This document shows, piece by piece, positions 40,565 to 49,983 of a DNA stretch of 64,000 bases. The translations under genes were made by a program, and so were the position numbers. Each line of letters starts with the position of its first letter. The first letter of the stretch is position 1. Below the pieces are notes generated by a model. That model made no database searches, was not told the origin of the DNA, and worked only from the letters and a program-made list of their open reading frames with translations. The stretch comes from Candidatus Heimdallarchaeum aukensis (lineage in GTDB: Archaea; Asgardarchaeota; Heimdallarchaeia; Heimdallarchaeales; Heimdallarchaeaceae): NCBI GenBank assembly GCA_021513695.1, contig CP084166.1:1824001-1888000 (forward strand). The letters are read 5' to 3'.

Positions 40565-40667
40565 AAACGATTAAGCATGTCCGAATAAAAGTTTATGCTT
40601 TTGAAACGAGTAGAAAACATTTGAGTCTTCTTGAAAGAAATAGAGGATTAAAGAGAAAGCCAAATAG

Positions 40668-40763
40668 TGGAGCCAGGACGGGGATTTGAACCCCGGAGGC
40701 ATAAGCCAGCGGTTATCTCTCTGATGTTTCGAGACCGCCTCCGTACCACTAGGATATCCTGGC
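40668..40763 (-). tRNA. Type-II tRNA, anticodon CGA (Ser-like), with a short 13-nt intron in the anticodon loop; discriminator U73 followed by CCA
   Basis: Hand fold: acceptor GCCAGGA/UCCUGGC, anticodon stem GCGGU/ACCGC enclosing 20 nt, variable arm UGGCUUAUGCCUC (GGC/GCC stem), T arm CGGGG-UUCAAAU-CCCCG. Confidence 0.5.
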
Positions 40764-40903
40764 AAAGGAAAAGTTCATTGTCTTGATTTTCATTGAAGTC
40801 AATATTTTAAGATTTCTACCTTGTTCACTTTTTAATTGATATAAGTACATTTGTGTTTCTTGATATTTTCGAACAAACAAAGATATGGTTAAAAAAAGAA
40901 AAG

Positions 40904-41518
40904 TTACAATCTAACGAAAGTTCTACTCTTGCATTCCGGACAACCATTTATTGTACATTTATCACAAAGAAAAATCCCACACTTGGAACATTTTTTTATT
41001 GCTTTATTTTTTCTACACTTGAAACATTTTTTAATCAGAAACCTTTTCCATAATTTATATATTAAATAAAGCAACACAAATGCTAATCCAAGTCCTAAAA
41101 TAACTTTAAGTATAATTAATAACACATTTCCAGCACTAGGTCCAGTATGATCAGGAGTCGCATCTAGTGTTATTCTTAAGATTTTTACATTTTTGTATTC
41201 AAAGTAGCTCACAGAGCCATTTGTTTGAGTTACATACCAAGAAATAGAGGATTTTGTTTCTCCTACCTTCATCCCTACTAGTTCACTAACAAAATTATAA
41301 TTTGTAATATCCTCGTCAATTGCTACTTCTAAAGGGTAGTCTTCACTATATACGGTTTTTAATTTGCCATCTATATATCGTTCACAAGCAACCTCTACAC
41401 GGTCGCCCCATTCTATCCCTAGTTTTTTGTCATAAGCATCTACAGGTATAGTTAAAGAAAGGAATAAACTAATAACAATAAGAAAAAATGCTAAGTTTTT
41501 AGCTCTAGCTCTACTCAT
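40904..41518 (-). CDS. Membrane protein: signal peptide, FKBP-like extracellular domain, TM helix, cytoplasmic C8 zinc-ribbon tail
   Basis: GDRVEVACERYIDGKLKTVYSEDYPLEVAIDED...LVGMKVGETKSSI resembles the FKBP PPIase signature. The tail is CFKCRKNKAIKKCSKCGIFLCDKCTINGCPECK. Confidence 0.5.
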   Translation of the reverse strand: MSRARAKNLAFFLIVISLFLSLTIPVDAYDKKLGIEWGDRVEVACERYIDGKLKTVYSEDYPLEVAIDEDITNYNFVSELVGMKVGETKSSISWYVTQTNGSVSYFEYKNVKILRITLDATPDHTGPSAGNVLLIILKVILGLGLAFVLLYLIYKLWKRFLIKKCFKCRKNKAIKKCSKCGIFLCDKCTINGCPECKSRTFVRL

Positions 41519-41562
41519 CGGTTTTCTGTTAGTGGTTTAGTTTAAAAGAATTTCTAAGAAGT

Positions 41563-42192
41563 CTATTTTTTAAATCGAACTAAGGTTCTTCCATTGCAAC
41601 TTGGACAACCATTTCGGAAACAGTGAATGCAATAACTTTGTCCACACTTACTACATTTGCCTATAGCCTTCTTATTACAAATAGAACATTTTTTGAAAAA
41701 CAATTTAGGATAAACTTTAAAGCCGCAATAAATTAAGACCAAAGACCCCCCGATACCAGATAAGACTATTATAAACTTAAGGAAGTTAAAGTTTCCAGAT
41801 GGAGAAGAAGTTGTTGAAGAAACACCTTCAACACCATAGATTTCAACATTCTGATAATGTAACAATTTACCAGCTAAATAACCATAGTCTGGGTCTGAAG
41901 CATCGAAACCTTCTTCTGGAGGAACATCAAAATTTCGTTTTTCACCAATTTTCATTCCAAGCATTCTGGTGTACAATCCAATAGGCTTAATGTTATTTTC
42001 ATTAAACAATATCTTTTTTGGTATAGAACTATCATAATATTCAATAGTCTTCCCATCAACAAGTAAGTGGTAACCAAATGATACTAAATCGTTATCCTGA
42101 ATTCCATTATCATAACTGTGTATTGGTGTAACAAAAATAACAGGTAAGAATAGAATAGTAAATATCAAGAGCTTATTCAGACATCTCATCAT
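41563..42192 (-). CDS. Paralogue of the preceding gene: FKBP-like ectodomain, TM helix, cytoplasmic zinc-ribbon tail
   Basis: LLVDGKTIEYYDSSIPKKILF...LGMKIGEKRNFDVPPEEGF; tail CSICNKKAIGKCSKCGQSYCIHCFRNGCPSCNGR. Confidence 0.5.
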   Translation of the reverse strand: MMRCLNKLLIFTILFLPVIFVTPIHSYDNGIQDNDLVSFGYHLLVDGKTIEYYDSSIPKKILFNENNIKPIGLYTRMLGMKIGEKRNFDVPPEEGFDASDPDYGYLAGKLLHYQNVEIYGVEGVSSTTSSPSGNFNFLKFIIVLSGIGGSLVLIYCGFKVYPKLFFKKCSICNKKAIGKCSKCGQSYCIHCFRNGCPSCNGRTLVRFKK

Positions 42193-42411
42193 TTTTCCAA
42201 AAATAAAATTAAATTAAAAAGATATCGAAAATAGTTCCCTACTAATAAAATTGTAACAATCAAATGGATTCAAATATTTCTTCTAAAAAGACACGATGCT
42301 TTAAGGAGACCTAAACAACAAGGTTTTTCAGTCAACAGAATACCCATCTAAAAAGGTCCTTATTGCTCTGACATAGATAATAACTTTTAAACATAAAAAA
42401 AGAAAAAGGAT

Positions 42412-44322
42412 TTATTTTTTAGAGAATAGGAAGGTTACAGCTCCGATTACGGACATAAGTATTAACCCACCACCAACCCAGACCCAAACAGGGATTGGAG
42501 GTTTGTATTCTATATTATTTTGGACTCTATTTCCACTAAAATTAGAAGTTTCGGCATCAAATGAAAGTGAATATAACCCCCCTTTCACTCCTTTCAATAG
42601 AATTTCACCGCCCCATCCAGCATATTTCTCTTCATTGAAAGTAAGATTATAGTAGTATGTTCCTTTCTCCCCACTCAATGTTACTGTTACAAAATCAGCT
42701 CCATTAGCATCATTAATCTCAGTTTGATTATAAAATATAATATCTAAGTCACTTATAAGAAGCGTTCTTCCGTCAAATGAAATTATTGGTTTATCCAATC
42801 TTAATTTGAAATGTTCTAAGGTTTCAACTAACACACTAGCTTGAGGACCCAAACCAAATGGATCACCATAAACAGTTGGATAATCCTCGTCAACATAAGC
42901 CAAGCAGAACAATATTTTCCTTACTTCTTTTTCTGGTTCAACATAAAATTGTTCTTTTGTTGTCTCATAAATTTCATAATCAATTAGTGTGTCATCTTTA
43001 GAAAAATACAAAGTTACAATGCCTAATCTTTTTTTATCTTTATTATTTATTCTAACATCCATAAACCGGTTAAGCAGATTTATTTCAAATGTGTAAAAAC
43101 CATAATATGGTACATCTATTGTAGAGGATATCTCTGTATAAGTTATTGTTACTGGTTCGATAGTGAATGTAATATCTGTAAATCCAAATGTTCCATTAGC
43201 AAGGTCGGGTCTATCTATTAATAAAGCTACATGCCAGTTGTAGAAAAAGTCGTTAAATGTTTCGCCTTTATCTTTTAATTCATCATTTATGGATTCTTGG
43301 ACAGGTCTAGTGTCATTAACAAATTTTCTGATTATATCAGGACCAAATTGCTCGTAAACATAAAAAACAAAAAGATAGGCTCCACCATAATCAATTCGTA
43401 CATCACGGTTTCCCTCAGAATAATAATTCCAATAAATTAAAGAATCATCTGAATGTTCTTTAAAGTAATTTTCACTCCAATAAGAAACTCCTTCATAACC
43501 ACCAGGCATTCTTCCAGTTATATACTCTGAAAATACTGCACATCCTTCATCGAACCAGCGCATTTCATCCTGATCATGGTTGTAATGAATTAAGTGTTGA
43601 AACTCATGTGCCAAGGTATCAGTGTAATCTGCGATACCACCAATAAATATCATTTCCCATTCATTAGATTTCAAATAGGAGTATCCTTGTGCATCTAGTT
43701 CCTCTTGTGTATGCTCATTAATTCCCCAGAAATACCCAGCATAATTTGAGGGAAGGTAAGTATGAAGAATGATTAATCTTCCATCACCTATGTTCCCCAA
43801 ATTACCCTCCATATCTCCAAAAAAATCATATTCTATAGGGTAGATTTTACTTTCGAATATACTTTTTTCGCTTGTTATTAGATTATTTACAGCATTTACC
43901 CCATATTCATTAATCATATCAATTTCTACAAAATAGTATGCATGCTCTGAAATGGCAACAACTTTGGCTTCTGCAATTCTAAAACTAATTGTATTTCCGC
44001 CTTCTTCTACGTAAAAACTTTTAGTATCTCCTACATTGAAAGATAGACTATAACTCGTAGTCTTTTTTACTTCTGAACGTGATATATGCTTAGTATTTTC
44101 AATGATTTCTTTTGGAACACTATGAGTAAGCACAATTTCATTTTGAGGAGAATCTTGAAAATAGTTTACTGTTTCAGCTTTAATTTTTGTATTCATTTCT
44201 TTTTCTGTATTAGAAGTATAACTAGAATCCGCAAACAACGAATTTGGTATAAAAAATTGTGATAGAATAATAATAACAAATATTTTAGTCAATAGTTTAT
44301 ATTTTTTAAAAACAGATGTCAT
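42412..44322 (-). CDS. Secreted/surface zinc metalloprotease (HExxH...E gluzincin-like) with C-terminal TM anchor
   Basis: N-terminal signal peptide, TLAHEFQHLIHYNHDQDEMRWFDEG (HExxH plus a downstream Glu), C-terminal hydrophobic anchor VWVWVGGGLILMSVIGAVTFLFSKK. Confidence 0.5.
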   Translation of the reverse strand: MTSVFKKYKLLTKIFVIIILSQFFIPNSLFADSSYTSNTEKEMNTKIKAETVNYFQDSPQNEIVLTHSVPKEIIENTKHISRSEVKKTTSYSLSFNVGDTKSFYVEEGGNTISFRIAEAKVVAISEHAYYFVEIDMINEYGVNAVNNLITSEKSIFESKIYPIEYDFFGDMEGNLGNIGDGRLIILHTYLPSNYAGYFWGINEHTQEELDAQGYSYLKSNEWEMIFIGGIADYTDTLAHEFQHLIHYNHDQDEMRWFDEGCAVFSEYITGRMPGGYEGVSYWSENYFKEHSDDSLIYWNYYSEGNRDVRIDYGGAYLFVFYVYEQFGPDIIRKFVNDTRPVQESINDELKDKGETFNDFFYNWHVALLIDRPDLANGTFGFTDITFTIEPVTITYTEISSTIDVPYYGFYTFEINLLNRFMDVRINNKDKKRLGIVTLYFSKDDTLIDYEIYETTKEQFYVEPEKEVRKILFCLAYVDEDYPTVYGDPFGLGPQASVLVETLEHFKLRLDKPIISFDGRTLLISDLDIIFYNQTEINDANGADFVTVTLSGEKGTYYYNLTFNEEKYAGWGGEILLKGVKGGLYSLSFDAETSNFSGNRVQNNIEYKPPIPVWVWVGGGLILMSVIGAVTFLFSKK

Positions 44323-44513: not shown

Positions 44514-47204
44514 ATGTCGTCGGAAGGATATAAAATTATATCTGGTGTCCAATTTGGACTTTTAGATCCAGATACAATTCGCAAGTTGTCTGCAGAACGT
44601 ATTATTACCCCCGATACATATGACGCTGATGGTAGTCCTATTGATTCTGGATTGATGGATGGAAAATTAGGAACTATTGACCCAGGACAAAGATGTAAAA
44701 CATGTGGAGCTAGAATCGGAAGTTGTCCTGGTCACTTTGGCCACATTGAGTTATCTAGACCAGTAATACACGTAGGATTTAATAAATTAATATACAAAAT
44801 TTTACGAGCGTCTTGCCGTAATCCAGAGTGTCATAGAATTTTATTGGATCCAAGTGAAATCGCAGAAGCGAGAGAGAAACTTGCAGAATATAGAGAGCAA
44901 TGGGGAGAAGAAGATTACGAATTAATTGAGGAATTAATGAAACGTGCTGCTAAAAAAAATGTTTGCCCATATTGTGGAGAAAAACAGCATAAAATAAGAT
45001 TAGAAAAACCAACTACTTATTTTGAAGAAGTAGAGATAGAAAACGGGCAAAAGCAATTAAATAAATTAAGCCCTACAGATATTCATTCATGGTTTAAAGG
45101 TCTTAGTGATGAAGATTGTGAATTATTTGGAATAAATCCAAAATATGCGAGACCTGAATGGATGATTCTCGAAGTATTACCTGTTCCTCCTGTCAGCGTT
45201 AGACCTAGTATTACATTAGAAAATGGTATTCGTTCAGAGGATGACTTGACACACAAACTCGTTGATATAATTAGAATTAATCAAAGGCTCTTAGAGAATA
45301 GAGAAGCTGGTGCACCACAACTTATAGTTGAAGATTTATGGGAACTTCTACAATACCATGTTAGTACATACTTTGATAACGAAATTAGCGGTATTCCCCC
45401 TGCAAGACATAGAAGTGGGAGAGCACTAAGAACACTCACACAAAGATTAAAAGGAAAAGAAGGTAGATTTCGTTCAAATTTGAGTGGAAAACGTGTAGAT
45501 TTTTCCGCAAGAACCGTAATTAGTCCTGACCCATTATTATCAATAAATGAGGTTGGTGTTCCAAAAGATATAGCAGAAATACTTACAGTACCTCAAAGGG
45601 TAACAGAGTGGAACATCGAAGAAATGAAAGAACTAGTCCTTAAGGGGCCAAAATCATTTCCAGGAGCAAATTACATAATCCGCCCTGATGGTCGAAGAGT
45701 TGACCTTAGATACGCACGAAATTTACAAGCAGCAGCAGATAGTATAAAACCAGAGTTTATTATTGAACGCCACTTAAGAGACGGAGATATTGTCCTCTTT
45801 AATCGACAACCAAGCTTACACAGAATGAGTATTATGGCCCATGAAGTAAAAGTAGTTCCATATAAAACATTTAGATTAACTCTTCCAGTTTGTAGGCCTT
45901 ATAATGCTGATTTTGACGGAGACGAGATGAATCTTCACGTCCCTCAAAGTGAAGAAGCACAAGCAGAAGCGAGAATTTTAATGCGTGTTCAAGAACAAAT
46001 AAGTACTCCACGATATGGAGGACCAATCATTGGAGCAATCCAGGATTTCATTACAAGCGCATATTTCCTTACAAGAAAAGACGCGAAATACACCAGAAGT
46101 GAAGTATCACAACTTATAACGGCAGCAGGTTTAGAAAAACTTCCAAAACCAGATCTGAAAAGCGAAGACGGAAAAGATCTTTGGAGTGGAAAAGCATTAT
46201 TCAGTGCACTATTACCTGAAGATTTCAACTTCACAATGAAAAACAAACTTTGTGAGGAACACGAGACTTGTATGAAACAAAAATGTCCTAATGAAGCATA
46301 TATATTTATTAAAAATGGCCAGCTCAAATCAGGAATTATTGACAAAAAAGCTTTTGGTGCAGAAGTTCCAGATAGCGTCCTACACAGAATTCTGAAAGAA
46401 TATGGAGCAGATATTACTAGAAAGTTCTTAGATAATGTTACGAGGTTATTGATCACAAATATTACATTACGTGGATTTAGTATGAGTGCAAGCAATGTTG
46501 ACATTCCAGCAAAAGCAGAAAAACAAATAGAAAAAATACTAAAGAAAGCAAAGGAAGAAGTAAATAAACTAATAGAACAATACAAAAATGGAACCTTAGA
46601 AAGACAACCAGGACGTACTGAAGAAGAAACATTGGAAGCAAAAATAATGGAAACACTATCAAAGGCAAGAGATGATAGTTCAAAGGTCAGTTCACAATAT
46701 TTAGATCCAGATAATGAAGCTCTAATTATGGCTAAAACGGGTGCAAGAGGAAATATGCTAAACTTGGGACAAATGAGTGCATGTGTCGGACAGCAAGCAG
46801 TAAGAGGACAACGAATAGTAAGAGGGTACAGAAACAGAGTTTTACCTTTTTTCAAGAAGGATGATTTATCTGCTGAAGCTCATGGATTCGTTGATAGTAG
46901 CTTTAGAAAAGGATTAAACCCAATTGAATTCTTTATGCACGCCTGTGGAGGAAGAGAAGGTTTAGTAGATACTGCAGTAAGAACATCACAAAGTGGGTAC
47001 ATGCAAAGAAGGTTGGTAAACGCACTACAAGATATTTCATCTTGCTATGATAATACTGTCCGAAATGCTACCGGGGAAATTGTCCAATTTACCTATGGAG
47101 AAGATAATGTAGACCCTGCAAAAAGTGATCATGGAAAAGCTGTAAACGTTAAGTTGATTGTAAACAAAATTTTAGAGACTTTCAGCGAGGAAGGAGAAGA
47201 ATAA
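44514..47204 (+). CDS. rpoA1: DNA-directed RNA polymerase subunit A' (Rpo1N)
   Basis: Zinc-binding CKTCGARIGSCPGHFGH, catalytic NADFDGDEMNLH motif, 896 aa. Confidence 0.9.
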   Translation: MSSEGYKIISGVQFGLLDPDTIRKLSAERIITPDTYDADGSPIDSGLMDGKLGTIDPGQRCKTCGARIGSCPGHFGHIELSRPVIHVGFNKLIYKILRASCRNPECHRILLDPSEIAEAREKLAEYREQWGEEDYELIEELMKRAAKKNVCPYCGEKQHKIRLEKPTTYFEEVEIENGQKQLNKLSPTDIHSWFKGLSDEDCELFGINPKYARPEWMILEVLPVPPVSVRPSITLENGIRSEDDLTHKLVDIIRINQRLLENREAGAPQLIVEDLWELLQYHVSTYFDNEISGIPPARHRSGRALRTLTQRLKGKEGRFRSNLSGKRVDFSARTVISPDPLLSINEVGVPKDIAEILTVPQRVTEWNIEEMKELVLKGPKSFPGANYIIRPDGRRVDLRYARNLQAAADSIKPEFIIERHLRDGDIVLFNRQPSLHRMSIMAHEVKVVPYKTFRLTLPVCRPYNADFDGDEMNLHVPQSEEAQAEARILMRVQEQISTPRYGGPIIGAIQDFITSAYFLTRKDAKYTRSEVSQLITAAGLEKLPKPDLKSEDGKDLWSGKALFSALLPEDFNFTMKNKLCEEHETCMKQKCPNEAYIFIKNGQLKSGIIDKKAFGAEVPDSVLHRILKEYGADITRKFLDNVTRLLITNITLRGFSMSASNVDIPAKAEKQIEKILKKAKEEVNKLIEQYKNGTLERQPGRTEEETLEAKIMETLSKARDDSSKVSSQYLDPDNEALIMAKTGARGNMLNLGQMSACVGQQAVRGQRIVRGYRNRVLPFFKKDDLSAEAHGFVDSSFRKGLNPIEFFMHACGGREGLVDTAVRTSQSGYMQRRLVNALQDISSCYDNTVRNATGEIVQFTYGEDNVDPAKSDHGKAVNVKLIVNKILETFSEEGEE

Positions 47205-47208
47205 CGAG

Positions 47209-49983
47209 GTGAAAAAAGTGGCTAACTATCTTACAACAAGACAAATTAGTAATAAATTAAGAAAGTTGAAAGAAGAAGGAATTCCTCAGACAATTGTTGA
47301 TGAATTAAAAGAAGAATTGAAAGGAAAAAACGTAACTCAAAAACAGATGGATCTTATAATAAAAGAGATAGTTAAGAGTTATGAATTTGCGCAAATTGAC
47401 CCAGGTAGCGCAGTAGGAACAGTAGCAGCACAATCTATAGGCGAACCAGGAACACAAATGAGTATTCCAGGTAATGAGAAAGTAGTTGTAAAAATTGGAA
47501 GTAAAACAGAAATTATAGAAATCGGAGAGTTTATTGACAATTTATTAGAAAAAAATGAAGGTTATTTAATAGAAAATGAAACAGAGACAGTTGTTTATGA
47601 TCTACCAAATAATAGTGATATCTATGTTTTAGGGATAAACAATAAAGAAAAAATAGTATGGCAAAGAATTCTACAAATAAGTAGGCATTTGCCTAATGGG
47701 AGCCTATTAAGAATAAAAACAAAATCAGGTAGAACAATTACCGCTACATTTTCTCATTCGTTTGTTATACGAAAAGATAATGAGATTGTGCCAGTAAAAG
47801 GAAAAGAATTGCAGTTAGGAGACAGATTACCTATCGTCTTATCTATTCCATCTATGACGCCAATAACAGAGTTATCAGTAAGTGAATATTTACCAAAAGA
47901 GGAAATATGGCATAACCCAGATTTAGCTATAACAATACCAATCAGAGAAGAATATGGAGGAAATCGTTACAACGAACATACAACATCAATAAAACAAGAT
48001 GATTCGTATGAAATCATTAAAATAGAGAAAATTGAAGAGGAAGATTCTTTTTATCCTAGAATTTATCAAAATAATAAAGCACTCATTCCTGAGAAAATTC
48101 CTCTCACAGATGATTTTGCATGGTTTATTGGTGCATATCTAGCAGAAGGGAGTAACACTGGTACAAGAATTTCCATTTCAAATATCAACTATGATTACCT
48201 TAAAAAAGTTGGAAAGTTTGCGGAGTGGCTAAATATTTCAACAGCAACAACAAGCAAAAATGAAGAATTTGGATCTAGTTTAAGTATCCATCTTAACTCA
48301 ATGCTTCTCGCAAAGTTGATGAAAAGAATGTGTGGAAAAGGCCCAGAAACTAAATTTGTTCCAGGATGGACAATCAATACAAAAACGGAATTTATTGGAC
48401 ACTTGCTTCGAGGATTTTTCGATGGAAATGCAACTATTAGTACAGAAAAAGGTGTAATCATAGCTCGTTCTAAATCCAAAGAATTACGCGATGGAATATG
48501 TCTTTTACTATCAAGGTTAGGAATTTTTGCTAAAAAAAGTAACCAAGGAAATAGTTACATATTAACCATTCCTGGAAAATATGCGGAGATATTCCATTCA
48601 AAAATTGGTTCTGACATTGATTATAAAGAAAAATCACTGCTTCAACTTATAGAAATTGAAAAATCAAAACAAAAGACAGATGACTCTGTGGATATAATAC
48701 CAGGATTAGGAACCATCTTTGAGGATATAAAAGAAAAACTAGACTTAAGCCCACAAGTAATTTCTATTGCAAGCAACAAACAAGCCATTGGAAGACAAGC
48801 ATGTGCTCAATATATCAAAATGTTTTCTGAAATTGCTGTGAAGAAAGGAATTAATATAGATAATGAGCTTATGACCTTAAATCAAGCATATAATAGTGAC
48901 GTATTATGGGATGAAATTATAAGTTTAGAGAAAATCGATTCTCCTACACCTTATGTCTATGATTTTGGGGTTTCAGAACTTGAAACATTTATGACTGCAG
49001 AAGGAATAATAACTCATAACACCTTACAGACTTTCCATTACTCTGGTGTTGCAGAGATGTCTGTTCTTCGAGGTTTACCAAGATTAATAGAAATCGTTGA
49101 CGCTAGAAAAAATCCTAGTACTCCAACTATGAGAATTCATTTAGATAAAATAGGAGAAAAGGATGAACAAATAGCTAAACAAGTCGCTAGAAGAATTGAG
49201 TTAACTACTGTTAGCAATGTAGCAACTAGTATTAAGCACAGTTTTGCAGAAGGATGCATAAAGATCAAATTGGAACCAGTTTTACTAGAAGATAAAGGTA
49301 TTGAGCCTGAGACCATCGTCAAAAAGATCCAGAAGAAAAGAAGGCGTATTAAAGTAGAAATAGACCCCAACGATGAATATACTATTATTGTAACCCCAAC
49401 AAAAGAACTTAAGTTCAATGAATTACCAAAACTTGCAGAAAAGGTAAAGGACATACCTATTAAAGGATTAAAAAATATTACTAGAGTAGTAGTTCTTAAA
49501 AACAAACAAGGAGAGTATTATCTTCAAAGTGAAGGGAGTAATTTCAGTGAATTACTGCGAATACCGGGAGTCGATCCAACTAGATGCTATAGCAGTGACA
49601 TAAATCAAATTGCAGAAACCCTAGGGATTGAAGCAGCAAGAAATGCGCTCATACAAGAATCTTTAGCAGTTATGAAAGAACAGGGATTAGACGTAGATAA
49701 AAGACATGTTATGCTTGTTGCAGATCTTATGACATTGGTTGGAGAAGTACAGCAAATTGGACGACATGGTGTTTCAGGAAAGAAAAGCTCTGTTTTTGCT
49801 AGAGCAGCTTTTGAAGTAACCGTGAAACATTTGTTAGAAGCCGCAATCCATGGGGAACATGAACCTTTAGAAGGAATTACAGAAAATGTTATAATTGGAC
49901 AAACAATTGCATTAGGAACAGGAATTGTGGATCTTACTATGAGTCCAAATTATAGAGAGTTTGCCAAAGAAGAAGAAAACTAA
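47209..49983 (+). CDS. rpoA2: DNA-directed RNA polymerase subunit A'' (Rpo1C) interrupted by an in-frame intein of about 520 aa
   Basis: The exteins (84 plus 320 aa) read ...SIGEPGTQM[S...intein...HN]TLQTFHYSGVAEMSVLRGLPRLIEIVDARK. The whole ORF is 924 aa. Confidence 0.9.
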   Translation: MKKVANYLTTRQISNKLRKLKEEGIPQTIVDELKEELKGKNVTQKQMDLIIKEIVKSYEFAQIDPGSAVGTVAAQSIGEPGTQMSIPGNEKVVVKIGSKTEIIEIGEFIDNLLEKNEGYLIENETETVVYDLPNNSDIYVLGINNKEKIVWQRILQISRHLPNGSLLRIKTKSGRTITATFSHSFVIRKDNEIVPVKGKELQLGDRLPIVLSIPSMTPITELSVSEYLPKEEIWHNPDLAITIPIREEYGGNRYNEHTTSIKQDDSYEIIKIEKIEEEDSFYPRIYQNNKALIPEKIPLTDDFAWFIGAYLAEGSNTGTRISISNINYDYLKKVGKFAEWLNISTATTSKNEEFGSSLSIHLNSMLLAKLMKRMCGKGPETKFVPGWTINTKTEFIGHLLRGFFDGNATISTEKGVIIARSKSKELRDGICLLLSRLGIFAKKSNQGNSYILTIPGKYAEIFHSKIGSDIDYKEKSLLQLIEIEKSKQKTDDSVDIIPGLGTIFEDIKEKLDLSPQVISIASNKQAIGRQACAQYIKMFSEIAVKKGINIDNELMTLNQAYNSDVLWDEIISLEKIDSPTPYVYDFGVSELETFMTAEGIITHNTLQTFHYSGVAEMSVLRGLPRLIEIVDARKNPSTPTMRIHLDKIGEKDEQIAKQVARRIELTTVSNVATSIKHSFAEGCIKIKLEPVLLEDKGIEPETIVKKIQKKRRRIKVEIDPNDEYTIIVTPTKELKFNELPKLAEKVKDIPIKGLKNITRVVVLKNKQGEYYLQSEGSNFSELLRIPGVDPTRCYSSDINQIAETLGIEAARNALIQESLAVMKEQGLDVDKRHVMLVADLMTLVGEVQQIGRHGVSGKKSSVFARAAFEVTVKHLLEAAIHGEHEPLEGITENVIIGQTIALGTGIVDLTMSPNYREFAKEEEN
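47461..49020 (+). mobile_element. Intein in rpoA2 with a LAGLIDADG homing-endonuclease domain
   Basis: Starts with Ser after GTQM and ends THN before TLQ. LAGLIDADG-like motifs FAWFIGAYLAEGSNTG and GHLLRGFFDGNATIS. Coordinates come from codon counting. Confidence 0.8.

Follow-up and report, generated by a model that had tools for sequence, protein, structure and literature searches.

A conserved pair of FKBP-like membrane proteins with zinc-finger tails in Heimdallarchaeia, and the M30-type protease beside it

We report a computational analysis of two adjacent genes, here called A and B, from Candidatus Heimdallarchaeum aukensis, a Heimdall (Asgard) archaeon. The pair is old and conserved in Heimdallarchaeia, the M30-type metalloprotease encoded beside it in this genome being simply a recent neighbour. 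The reading that we favour, and hold with modest confidence, is that A and B are a type I membrane pair and would serve exported proteins as an extracytoplasmic folding helper, putatively a prolyl isomerase or chaperone, with the protease taking no part.

The architecture of these proteins appears to be undescribed so far. Our literature search found no description of an FKBP domain, a membrane helix and a C8 tail in this arrangement, which agrees with the initial annotation of this DNA, where no described archaeal system had been recognised.

Locus, architecture and paralogy of genes A and B

The window, by which we mean the whole stretch of 64,000 nucleotides that was analysed, carries three open reading frames where the initial annotation had placed them, all on the minus strand and encoding proteins of 204, 209 and 636 amino acids (Table 1). 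The downstream border of the A-B unit is a tRNA-Ser(CGA) gene lying between the unit and FAU-1; ARAGORN, with introns allowed, was run on the locus identical to the window (L001) and on the other loci. Behind the stop codons of the protease (T5 and T7) and of B (T7) stand runs of T, with no run of at least five T behind that of A, and this placement suggests that, in the window, the protease and A-B are separate transcription units. The spacer between the protease and A is AT-rich and 219 bp long.

Table 1. Features of the locus, with positions in the window
Feature	Position	Strand	Description or basis
Gene A	41563..42192	(-)	209-aa type I membrane protein: signal peptide, FKBP domain, membrane helix, B-box-like zinc finger (predicted)
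A signal peptide, predicted Sec, aa 1-26	42115..42192	(-)	Basic N-region, hydrophobic core, -3/-1 rule; cut before Tyr27
A extracytoplasmic FKBP domain, aa 27-123	41824..42114	(-)	SlyD/MjFKBP26-like, without insert-in-flap domain
A transmembrane helix, ~aa 137-160	41713..41784	(-)	Hydropathy peak 139-157; AlphaFold helix 137-165; K/R-rich segment C-terminal to helix
A C8 zinc finger, cytoplasmic, aa 169-199	41596..41688	(-)	C-x2-C-x7-C-x2-C-x4-C-x2-C-x4-C-x2-C; tail 11 K/R, 0 D/E; pLDDT 88-90
Gene B	40904..41518	(-)	204-aa paralogue of A, identical architecture, degenerate FKBP-like ectodomain
B C8 zinc finger, cytoplasmic	40931..41026	(-)	C-x2-C-x8-C-x2-C-x4-C-x2-C-x4-C-x2-C; tail 13 K/R, 2 D/E
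M30-type protease ORF	42412..44322	(-)	636 aa, secreted, beta-sandwich domains, C-terminal membrane anchor; outside conserved unit
Protease HEFQH zinc-binding/catalytic motif, aa 239-243	43594..43608	(-)	ORF translation, homologue alignment
tRNA-Ser(CGA), 13-nt intron	40668..40763	(-)	ARAGORN on window

That A and B are paralogues, each with a signal peptide and one transmembrane helix, had been proposed from the window itself and is borne out here. The full-length proteins are 32% identical (E=2e-27), and the ectodomains alone align in hhalign with a probability of 92.6% (E=4.7e-7). The family to which they belong comprises 103 cluster representatives at E<=1e-3, about 50 of them full length and sharing the architecture, which is therefore not a product of chance; the FKBP_C profile matches 29 of 42 members at E<0.01, with a best value of 8.7e-21. 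Signal peptides were judged by the -3/-1 rule, not with a trained predictor, so that cleavage is a predicted event: of 42 members, 40 have V/I/S/A/T at position -3, 41 have A/G/S/T at -1 and 37 have Tyr at +1. In both A and B a single hydrophobic helix is followed by a K/R-rich segment. The topology that we infer places the FKBP domain outside and the tail in the cytoplasm, since it is on the tail side that the K/R cluster flanks the helix, and since a zinc site of eight cysteines suits the reducing cytoplasm.

A neighbour-joining tree parts A from B cleanly according to gene position, and at 24 distinct loci the order is strictly A then B with a gap of -1 to 57 bp; we take the two genes to be an ancient duplication that is maintained as a tightly coupled pair. 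The parts of the architecture also occur in other combinations. L025, L026 and L028 carry a chimera in which a B-like ectodomain is joined to a tail resembling that of A, and P0131, L039 and L040 carry an AhpC-TSA/Redoxin ectodomain with a WCPPC motif (E=1e-21) on a like membrane helix and a B-type tail. By its sequence, the helix-plus-tail module is thus common to FKBP-like and thioredoxin-like (WCPPC) ectodomains.

The two ectodomains

The proposal that both genes encode FKBP-like domains holds directly for A. With Pfam FKBP_C (PF00254) it scores 26.1 bits, above the gathering score (21.1), a PDB profile search matches MjFKBP26 (3prb, E=2.3e-5), and the NCBI name of a protein identical to A is 'FKBP-type peptidyl-prolyl cis-trans isomerase [Ca. 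Heimdallarchaeum aukensis]'. The AlphaFold model has pLDDT >90 across residues 31-120 and, by its structural matches, the FKBP fold, in which a sheet of five strands wraps a short helix. Foldseek matches of this model include SlyD delta-IF (4odq; TMt 0.71, rmsd 1.7 A, 93 columns), MjFKBP26 (3pr9) and FKBP11 (9n9j), and FKBP13, FKBP12 and others are matched at TMt ~0.7.

Closest to the A ectodomain, in sequence as in fold, are SlyD and the archaeal FKBPs (Thermus SlyD, M. jannaschii FKBP26), with which it shares the pattern PGL...GM.vGE...PPE.(A/G)F and a Leu at the W59 position. The SlyD-type proteins are cytosolic PPIase-chaperones with an insert-in-flap domain, whereas A has no such insert, its best match being the engineered delta-IF form, and is predicted to be exported, anchored in the membrane and furnished with a zinc-finger tail.

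The pocket was examined against the residues Y26, F36, D37, W59, Y82 and F99 of FKBP12, to which the A-type sequences (n=25) were aligned manually. P70 and G72 are present in all 25, F96 in 24 and Y41 and L73 in 23 each, and Y/F113 is also retained; L73 is as in SlyD and F96 as in MjFKBP26. A SlyD-type hydrophobic pocket appears, on this alignment, to be kept in A, and its near-invariance across lineages that are 36-46% identical overall argues for a conserved ligand-binding function. The position equivalent to Asp37 is Asp in just three of the 25 sequences and Thr in 18, for which reason isomerase activity of A is putative and uncertain.

For B, the FKBP assignment stands at one remove. An FKBP profile search on B alone gave no match above threshold, and the likeness to FKBP is provided only by paralogy to A and by trigger factor, whose PPIase region B matches weakly. 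None of the 26 B-type sequences retains the PxGL motif or the PPEEGF/80s-loop segment, both being deleted or replaced throughout, so that the PxG motif and the entire segment bearing the Y82 equivalent and the 80s loop are absent; the predicted FKBP pocket of B is degenerate and largely lost.

The rarity of Asp at the Asp37 position and the degeneracy of B would also suit a structural or retention role, in which the FKBP-like domains are non-enzymatic parts of the surface or envelope and the tails, their basic residues bound to acidic lipids, only drive oligomerisation or clustering near the membrane, with no link to folding or to the translocon. We consider such a role unlikely, as the A-type pocket has stayed nearly the same in lineages so far diverged.

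The zinc-finger tail and a possible role at the translocon

The eight-cysteine site described in the initial annotation is present in both proteins, although the motif as printed there, with x8 as the first long gap, is correct for B and not for A, where this gap is x7. Across the family seven of the ligand cysteines are invariant and the sixth position is C/H/S/D. The spacing (x2, x7 or x8, x2, x4, x2, x4, x2) fits that of the type 1 B-box, C-x2-C-x7-10-C-x2-C-x4-5-C-x2-C-x3-6-(C/H)-x2-8-(C/H), known from MID1, PML, TRIM28 B-box1 and ZFYVE19/ANCHR, and an Ala ahead of the third Cys is conserved in B-box1 and in these tails alike. A profile of the tails matches the ZFYVE19 B-box (2d8v, E=1.2e-3) as well as PML B-box1 and MID1 B-box1, with 2d8v and 2mvw (E=0.013) as the best hits and all of these matches being marginal. 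The tail is probably a binuclear, cross-braced and putatively zinc-binding finger.

In Pfam, the B-box matches fall below the gathering scores (for A, PF22586 ANCHR-like_BBOX at 25.2 against 27; for B, PF00643 zf-B_box at 13.6 against 24.1), and B-box profiles match six of 42 family members at E<0.01. Because of these scores we term the tail only 'B-box1-like' and do not count it as a formal member of the B-box family. The earlier description as a double zinc ribbon was set aside, the B-box1-like finger being the better fit in spacing and in profile matches. Differences from the type 1 B-box remain, in that the ligands are all Cys and the tails are C-terminal, come straight after the membrane helix and are strongly basic (a mean of 9.6 K/R against 1.4 D/E in 84 tails of ~44 residues).

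To our knowledge, Archaea have neither sigma nor anti-sigma factors, and the 'anti-sigma-like' partner once suggested for this locus is baseless. The zinc-binding anti-sigma (ZAS) type was considered and rejected, as the tail is C-terminal with the C8 spacing of a B-box and has no N-terminal HxxxCxxC, and no regulator gene adjoins A and B.

The initial annotation had also proposed a transmembrane sensor, for which we found nothing in support. In its wider form, as a sensor or transducer, the ectodomains would recognise a ligand outside the cell, or peptides that are unfolded or rich in proline, and the tails would hold or release a cytoplasmic partner such as a Ras-family GTPase. The one-pass topology with an interaction-type internal zinc finger is reminiscent of one-component transmembrane signalling, and a degenerate pocket, as in B, is what one would expect of a non-enzymatic binding module. 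The like tail on a thioredoxin-like oxidoreductase ectodomain belongs, however, to an enzyme and not to a receptor, and we judge a sensor to be improbable.

The redoxin-bearing proteins also count against the structural role discussed above, for which B-box domains are otherwise a precedent, since in TRIM proteins they mediate self-association, and for which the positive-inside rule would account in part for the basic residues by the helix. Rather, the presence of this tail on a WCPPC redoxin points to catalysis of folding.

As a folding helper, A and B together would assist the folding of exported proteins at the outer face of the membrane. They may do so as a heteromer, suggested by a single observation, the co-retention of both genes, with A as the substrate-binding or catalytic member and B as its non-catalytic partner, and the zinc-finger tails may be a cytosolic docking or assembly module. 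In bacteria, PPIase/chaperones such as the lipoprotein PrsA, and PpiD at SecYEG, are tethered at the outer face of the cytoplasmic membrane near the Sec exit. The logic is that proposed for A and B, although PrsA and PpiD are parvulin-type proteins without homology to A or B, are anchored N-terminally through a lipid or a helix and lack a cytosolic zinc finger.

Closer in layout is human FKBP11 (FKBP19; PDB 9n9j), a translocon-associated transmembrane FKBP of the ER (PMC12804085). Like A and B it has ~200 amino acids, with a signal peptide, a non-cytosolic FKBP domain, one helix and a cytosolic C-terminus that is short and strongly basic; in Foldseek the A model aligns with 9n9j_A over 157 columns, covering the FKBP domain and the helix (E=1.6e-5). 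The FKBP11 tail is, by contrast, a basic helix and not a zinc finger, and FKBP11 has no paralogous partner gene. No evidence of orthology to FKBP11 was found: with the family profile FKBP11 scores 20 bits (E=3.6e-3) against 27 bits for MjFKBP26, and in Foldseek it also ranks below SlyD, so that the likeness is one of architecture only. A and B therefore resemble FKBP11 as analogues in layout, with a putative link to the translocon.

The basic C-terminal helix of FKBP11 lies beside uL22 and helix H24 of the 28S rRNA, and its tail binds ribosome-translocon complexes (PMC12804085); Asgard archaea possess translocons of the Sec61/OST/TRAP type (PMC11417166). More speculatively, the basic tails of A and B could in the same way keep their folding domains at Sec translocons with bound ribosomes, and the like tail could bring further catalysts of folding there, among them the thioredoxin-like version. 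FKBP11 has its nominal active site buried in the solved structure, whose authors argue for an adaptor and not an isomerase (PMC12804085), so that this precedent backs an adaptor no less than a foldase.

A theme of membrane-protein folding would also be common to the A and B tails and the prokaryotic B-boxes of Burroughs, Iyer and Aravind (2011), which, in the account given of that work in PMC4506424, are tied to membrane-protein folding, stability and proteolysis. The tails of the present family stand straight after a membrane helix. We know of no Heimdallarchaeial genomes that were yet available in 2011.

Gene neighbourhood and the M30-type protease

The three genes had been presented as one surface module, whose conservation across relatives was offered as a check. 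The protease adjoins A-B only in L001-L007, the genus-level relatives. Another 19 loci from Heimdallarchaeia GTDB species carry the A-B pair, none with a protease homologue within 8 kb, and 17 of them share the gene order HIT, Ras-like GTPase, A, B, tRNA-Ser(CGA), FAU-1, DUF2797. On this comparison of loci, the protease, A and B are not a co-conserved module, an outcome that the initial annotation had named as refuting its proposal. The neighbourhoods are of a housekeeping type (FAU-1, tRNA, RNA polymerase, ribosomal proteins), which fits a constitutive role for A and B.

A protease module, with A and B delivering, folding, activating or inhibiting the M30 metalloprotease as parts of one three-gene functional unit, is very unlikely. 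In its favour, secreted proteases often depend on dedicated foldases, as on PrsA in Bacillus; all three products are predicted on the outer side of the membrane, and the genes are adjacent on one strand in the window and its close relatives and are still neighbours in L003/L004, at 57-61% identity. In these last two loci, however, the pair has the opposite orientation with respect to the protease and FAU-1, which excludes co-transcription there, and the T runs and the spacer before A speak against it in the window. In the genome CSMAG_1225 the protease homologue (P0031) shares a contig with the pair but is ~660 kb away from it, and many paralogues of the protease family occur in other contexts.

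The neighbourhood bears on the sensor reading as well. Of the 19 GTDB species loci, 18 have a Ras-family GTPase gene (Pfam Ras, 134-150 bits) upstream of A, and in L009 such a gene adjoins A, which would supply a cytoplasmic partner. The gene is, however, absent from the window and from its genus-level relatives, and the gap between it and A ranges from 159 to 1679 bp, with an unrelated ORF of about 322 aa inside it in several lineages. The whole block is syntenic, including the tRNA gene, so that the adjacency may reflect inheritance only, and the distant single-copy family members have other neighbours.

The membrane-anchored HExxH zincin recognised in the initial annotation was confirmed and can be placed more precisely. 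A signal peptide stands at its N-terminus and, at its C-terminus, a membrane helix with basic residues behind it, an anchor conserved in its homologues; H239, E240, H243, E259 and Y312 are invariant across 39 of these. The protease sequence alone gave no Pfam match at E<=1 and a single-sequence search against lugdulysin (7bb8) was blank; a family profile was needed, which matches 7bb8 at E=1.6e-41 (146 bits; profile positions 58-380, ~325 residues). Foldseek also matches the protease to 7bb8 (E=3.4e-13), and Y312 corresponds in the alignment to Y315 of lugdulysin, which is mutated in 7bb9. With the HExxH, the downstream Glu and the Tyr all aligned, the protein is a clear homologue of MEROPS family M30 (hyicolysin/lugdulysin); it has the catalytic domain in common with those enzymes, to which it adds C-terminal beta-sandwich domains and the membrane anchor.

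Domain architecture of A and B

The initial annotation read genes A and B as tandem paralogues, each coding for an exported FKBP-like domain, a membrane helix and a cysteine-rich cytoplasmic tail, and placed them in one module with the neighbouring protease gene. All three open reading frames lie on the minus strand at the coordinates assigned to them, the domain reading stands, and the paralogy is borne out both by the proteins (32% identical, E=2e-27) and by their ectodomains alone (hhalign 92.6%, E=4.7e-7). A is 100% identical to an NCBI protein record of Candidatus Heimdallarchaeum aukensis, B carries the NCBI label "hypothetical protein", and the gene order of the window is also found on contigs of GCA_054384295.1 and GCA_054383835.1. 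GC stays at about 32% from end to end of the window, and the locus shows no compositional break.

Features of the window and of the other genomic loci compared (L numbers; L001-L007 are close, genus-level relatives of the window)
Feature	Locus	Coordinates	Strand	Remarks
B	window	40904-41518	-	204 aa ORF
A	window	41563-42192	-	209 aa ORF
Protease	window	42412-44322	-	636 aa ORF
tRNA-Ser(CGA)	window	40668-40763	-	between B and FAU-1; also L008, L011, L015-L032
ORF overlapping tRNA-Ser(CGA)	window	40571-40765	-	probably spurious
rpoA'	window	44514-47204		near, and divergent from, the protease gene
RNA polymerase subunit A''	window	47209-49983	+	924 aa
Third tandem family gene	L025	8609-9214	+	
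Third tandem family gene	L026	8603-9202	+	
Third tandem family gene	L028	8606-9211	+	
Protein directly 3' of P0031	L033	8303-9061	+	252 aa
Zinc-ribbon-tailed protein	L034/L035	8585-9226	+	213 aa
Single-copy family member	L036	8001-8639	+	
rpoA'	L036	8772-11480	+	
Redoxin-tail protein	L039	373-1185	+	signal peptide, AhpC-TSA/Redoxin WCPPC ectodomain, helix, B-type tail
Redoxin-tail protein	L040	262-1125	+	signal peptide, AhpC-TSA/Redoxin WCPPC ectodomain, helix, B-type tail

A belongs with the archaeal FKBP domains of the SlyD type but lacks their chaperone insert, and it is exported and held in the membrane; the FKBP assignment draws on its Pfam score, its predicted structure and the profile matches of its family. 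A scores above the gathering threshold of Pfam FKBP_C (26.1 versus 21.1 bits), and its AlphaFold model, made with a 16-sequence alignment, has pLDDT values above 90 at residues 31-120 and of 88-90 over the zinc finger. A Foldseek search of the PDB with this model returned FKBPs exclusively, the best match being Thermus SlyD minus its insert-in-flap domain (4odq; TMt 0.71, rmsd 1.7 A), with M. jannaschii FKBP26 ranking after it; the Foldseek alignment to human FKBP11 in the translocon structure 9n9j covers 157 columns, which comprise the FKBP domain and the membrane helix. Searched against the PDB, the family profile matched MjFKBP26 (E=2.3e-5), FKBP11 (3.6e-3) and the B-box of ZFYVE19 (0.03).

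Throughout the family the N-termini resemble Sec signals, with V, I, S, A or T at position -3 in 40 of 42 members and A, G, S or T at position -1 in 41 of 42, and cleavage is predicted from these -3/-1 rules. The proteins have a single hydrophobic helix followed by a K/R cluster; with the signal peptide, this predicts an extracellular FKBP domain and a cytoplasmic tail. The first residue past the predicted cleavage site is Tyr in 37 of the 42 members (Tyr27 in A, Tyr29 in B), with D, T or S usually next to it and then a G(I/V)E motif.

The tails carry eight cysteines with the spacing x2, x7 (A) or x8 (B), x2, x4, x2, x4, x2, which matches B-box type 1; seven cysteines are invariant family-wide and the sixth ligand is C, H, S or D. 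Fingers of the B-box type are best known from eukaryotic TRIM proteins. A profile built from the tails alone matched the B-box-like domain of ZFYVE19 (E=1.2e-3), then the B-box1 fingers of PML, MID1 and TRIM28, and NSD C5HCH and MYND fingers. Since every B-box score is marginal and under the Pfam thresholds, we name the tails B-box1-like and do not count them as members of the B-box family. They are unusually basic: A has 11 K/R without any D/E, B has 13 K/R beside two D/E, and the family mean is 9.6 K/R versus 1.4 D/E over about 44 residues. A motif scan found no other protein with a tail of this type in the 64-kb window.

Divergence of the two paralogues

After removal of duplicate loci, 26 loci with 52 proteins entered a neighbour-joining tree, in which first-gene and second-gene clades separate cleanly. 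As the tree splits by gene position, the duplication is older than the divergence of these lineages, and the order of A followed by B has been kept since. The spacer between the genes measures -1 to 57 bp, and in the window T4 and T7 runs follow the stop codon of B while no run of at least five T follows that of A, an arrangement that fits a single A-B transcript.

Y41, P70, G72, L73, F96 and Y/F113 are almost invariant in the A-type proteins; by the manual alignment with which FKBP12 numbering was mapped onto A and B, the position equivalent to FKBP12 Asp37 has Asp in the clade of the window alone and Thr elsewhere. The B-type proteins lack the PxG motif and the entire PPEEGF...AGK segment, and neither B alone nor a profile of B-type ectodomains gave a significant FKBP match in the PDB (best FKBP E=0.38). 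The top PDB matches of the B searches, to uS19, were judged to be chance matches. We infer a heteromer that would combine A, as the subunit with the pocket, and B, as a degenerate, non-catalytic partner. A rival proposal gives the two proteins a purely structural or clustering role; the near-invariance of the A-type positions speaks against it, and the degeneracy of B speaks for it. In three species a third tandem family gene stands between A and B, coding for a B-like ectodomain and an A-like tail (…FCERCYSNGCPYCKSRTLLKFK), and is apparently a recombinant of both paralogues.

The protease and the gene neighbourhood

The protease is an ordinary, unannotated surface protease of the M30 type. 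Its single sequence found no match in the PDB and the family profile alone succeeded: with 39 sequences, it matched lugdulysin, the M30 peptidase of Staphylococcus lugdunensis (7bb8), across the catalytic domain (E=1.6e-41), and the AlphaFold model of the protease (pLDDT 80.8) matched the same structure with E=3.4e-13. Residues H239, E240, H243, E259 and Y312 are invariant in the family, and Y312 aligns with the Tyr mutated in 7bb9. Beyond the catalytic domain lie beta-sandwich domains, a C-terminal helix and then basic residues, and this C-terminal anchor recurs in most Heimdall homologues. The protein directly 3' of one of these homologues, P0031 in the genome CSMAG_1225, is weakly similar to small GTPases (E=2.6e-5 to the GTPase HMM).

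A rival explanation makes A and B partners of this protease, and the window does share the trio with relatives of 85-100% identity (L001, L002, L005-L007). In L003 and L004 (57-61% identity) the orientation of the pair is reversed with respect to the protease and to FAU-1. A survey of one genome per GTDB species, conducted with an A-type search pattern that leaves out B-type and distant members, found a protease homologue within 8 kb of the pair in none of 19 species loci, and on the one contig of CSMAG_1225 that carries both, the pair is found at about 24 kb and the protease homologue at about 683 kb. Downstream of the protease stop codon in the window come T5 and T7 runs, and ahead of A lies an AT-rich spacer of 219 bp. 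On the neighbourhoods of 38 loci, where the trio occurs only in close relatives, we rejected the three-gene module, and annotation should keep the protease apart from the pair, not join them in one system.

In 17 of the 19 loci the gene order is HIT, Ras-family GTPase, A, B (sometimes with a third copy), tRNA-Ser(CGA), FAU-1 and DUF2797; one of the remaining two ends at a contig edge and the other is rearranged. Such an arrangement bears on another rival explanation, namely that A and B are a transmembrane sensor, possibly together with the Ras-like GTPase. Despite the striking synteny we set aside a functional link of the pair to FAU-1, the Ras-like GTPase, HIT or DUF2797, because a tRNA gene lies inside the block, its spacers are long, an unrelated 322-aa ORF stands between the GTPase gene and A in some lineages, and FAU-1 (57-60%) and phosphoglucomutase (51-58%) are conserved beside the faster-evolving A and B (36-46%). 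The block from HIT to DUF2797 looks like inherited synteny, not an operon, and the anti-sigma role first suggested for the pair was not upheld. The tRNA gene, which appears as "tRNA-???" under default ARAGORN, separates B and FAU-1 in every locus of this orientation; in the window's genus an intron of 13 nt interrupts it at position 37, and in other lineages it is intronless.

Distant members of the family are single-copy and have varied neighbours. The one in L036, from a distant Heimdallarchaeota genome, immediately precedes rpoA' and is on its strand, and the nearness of rpoA' to a family member both there and in the window may be a coincidence or a remnant of older synteny. An intein that contains a LAGLIDADG homing-endonuclease domain (Pfam Intein_splicing, LAGLIDADG_3) splits the A'' subunit encoded in the window, and it is also present in the relative L005 (85% identity).

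Distribution of the family and its possible role

With E<=1e-3, an exhaustive profile search gave 103 cluster representatives, of which about 50 are full length (190-235 aa) and share the four-part layout; Pfam FKBP_C is matched by 29 of 42 family members. The organism-named records are mostly from Heimdallarchaeia (Heimdallarchaeota, Hodarchaeota/Hodarchaeales, Heimdallarchaeaceae), and those from Kariarchaeaceae are versions without the zinc finger that end in the membrane helix and a short basic tail. Going by the named records, the family is confined to Heimdallarchaeia, including Hodarchaeales and Kariarchaeaceae, and one MAG labelled Methanobacteriota. Exported FKBPs without the zinc finger, found outside the window (P0150-P0154, P0168, P0170, P0174, P0192, P0197), have a Ser/Thr-rich linker before the membrane helix and short basic tail; these proteins, of which the named ones are from Kariarchaeaceae, are the nearest archaeal match to the layout of FKBP11, and their C-terminus seems to resemble an archaeosortase-type sorting signal.

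The same membrane helix and B-type tail also occur in proteins that start with a signal peptide and a TlpA/AhpC-type thioredoxin-fold ectodomain with WCPPC. One such protein, P0131, matches Pfam AhpC-TSA with E=1.2e-21 and has relatives at 66% and 50% identity in L039 and L040; among the hits of a metagenome scan, only two were true relatives of full length, both on short contigs, and the rest were generic redoxins. The family joins an exported FKBP to a cytosolic finger of TRIM-like type, and, since the same anchor stands behind the WCPPC ectodomain, an extracytoplasmic folding catalyst of a second, thioredoxin-like kind uses it too.

Membrane-tethered prolyl isomerases at the site of secretion are known from bacteria (PrsA, PpiD) and from the eukaryotic ER (FKBP11), and Heimdallarchaeia are the archaeal group nearest to the eukaryotes; to our knowledge, very little is known of archaeal extracytoplasmic folding helpers. 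The best-supported reading of A and B is a membrane-anchored, extracytoplasmic FKBP-type folding helper, whose basic B-box-like fingers would serve as a docking or assembly module in the cytosol. On this reading A and B would be a membrane-tethered extracytoplasmic PPIase, of a kind known elsewhere, with a new cytosolic zinc-finger anchor and an ancient pairing of a putatively catalytic with a degenerate gene.

FKBP11, with its signal peptide, FKBP domain, membrane helix and basic tail, is the closest working precedent, the likeness being one of layout and not of demonstrated descent. It associates with secretory translocons that carry a ribosome; its C-terminal helix, which is positively charged, lies beside uL22 and the 28S rRNA helix H24 and is required for ribosome binding, and the authors of that work argue for the role of an adaptor, not an isomerase (PMC12804085). 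Translocons of the Sec61/OST/TRAP type occur in Asgard archaea (PMC11417166) and, according to a passage of PMC4506424 that cites Burroughs et al. 2011, prokaryotic B-boxes were earlier linked to membrane-protein folding, stability and proteolysis. A Heimdallarchaeia-specific organisation of folding at the outer face, in which FKBP-type (A/B) and thioredoxin-type catalysts share a helix and a basic B-box-like finger that docks from the cytosol on a ribosome-bound Sec61/OST/TRAP-like translocon, is conceivable and, in our judgement, improbable. Were such docking true, it would make these proteins a prokaryotic functional counterpart, or a forerunner in logic, of the ER translocon-associated FKBP11-like factors and an early case of a B-box-type finger put to a non-ubiquitin use in the archaea most closely related to eukaryotes, and would offer a testable Asgard-ER link in the co-translational folding machinery. 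If the tails do not dock, A and B still form a well-defined, unannotated family deserving a family model.

Alike in layout to A and B is the 213-aa protein of L034 and L035, in which a signal peptide and an ectodomain precede a membrane helix and, in the cytosol, a zinc-ribbon tail of the form C-x2-C...C-x2-C; no FKBP is detectable in it and the family HMM matches on the tail only (E=5e-5). Its gene starts 14 bp inside the end of that for P0016, a distant homologue of the M30 protease. Proteins that cross the membrane once and bind zinc with a cytosolic tail may be widespread in these archaea.
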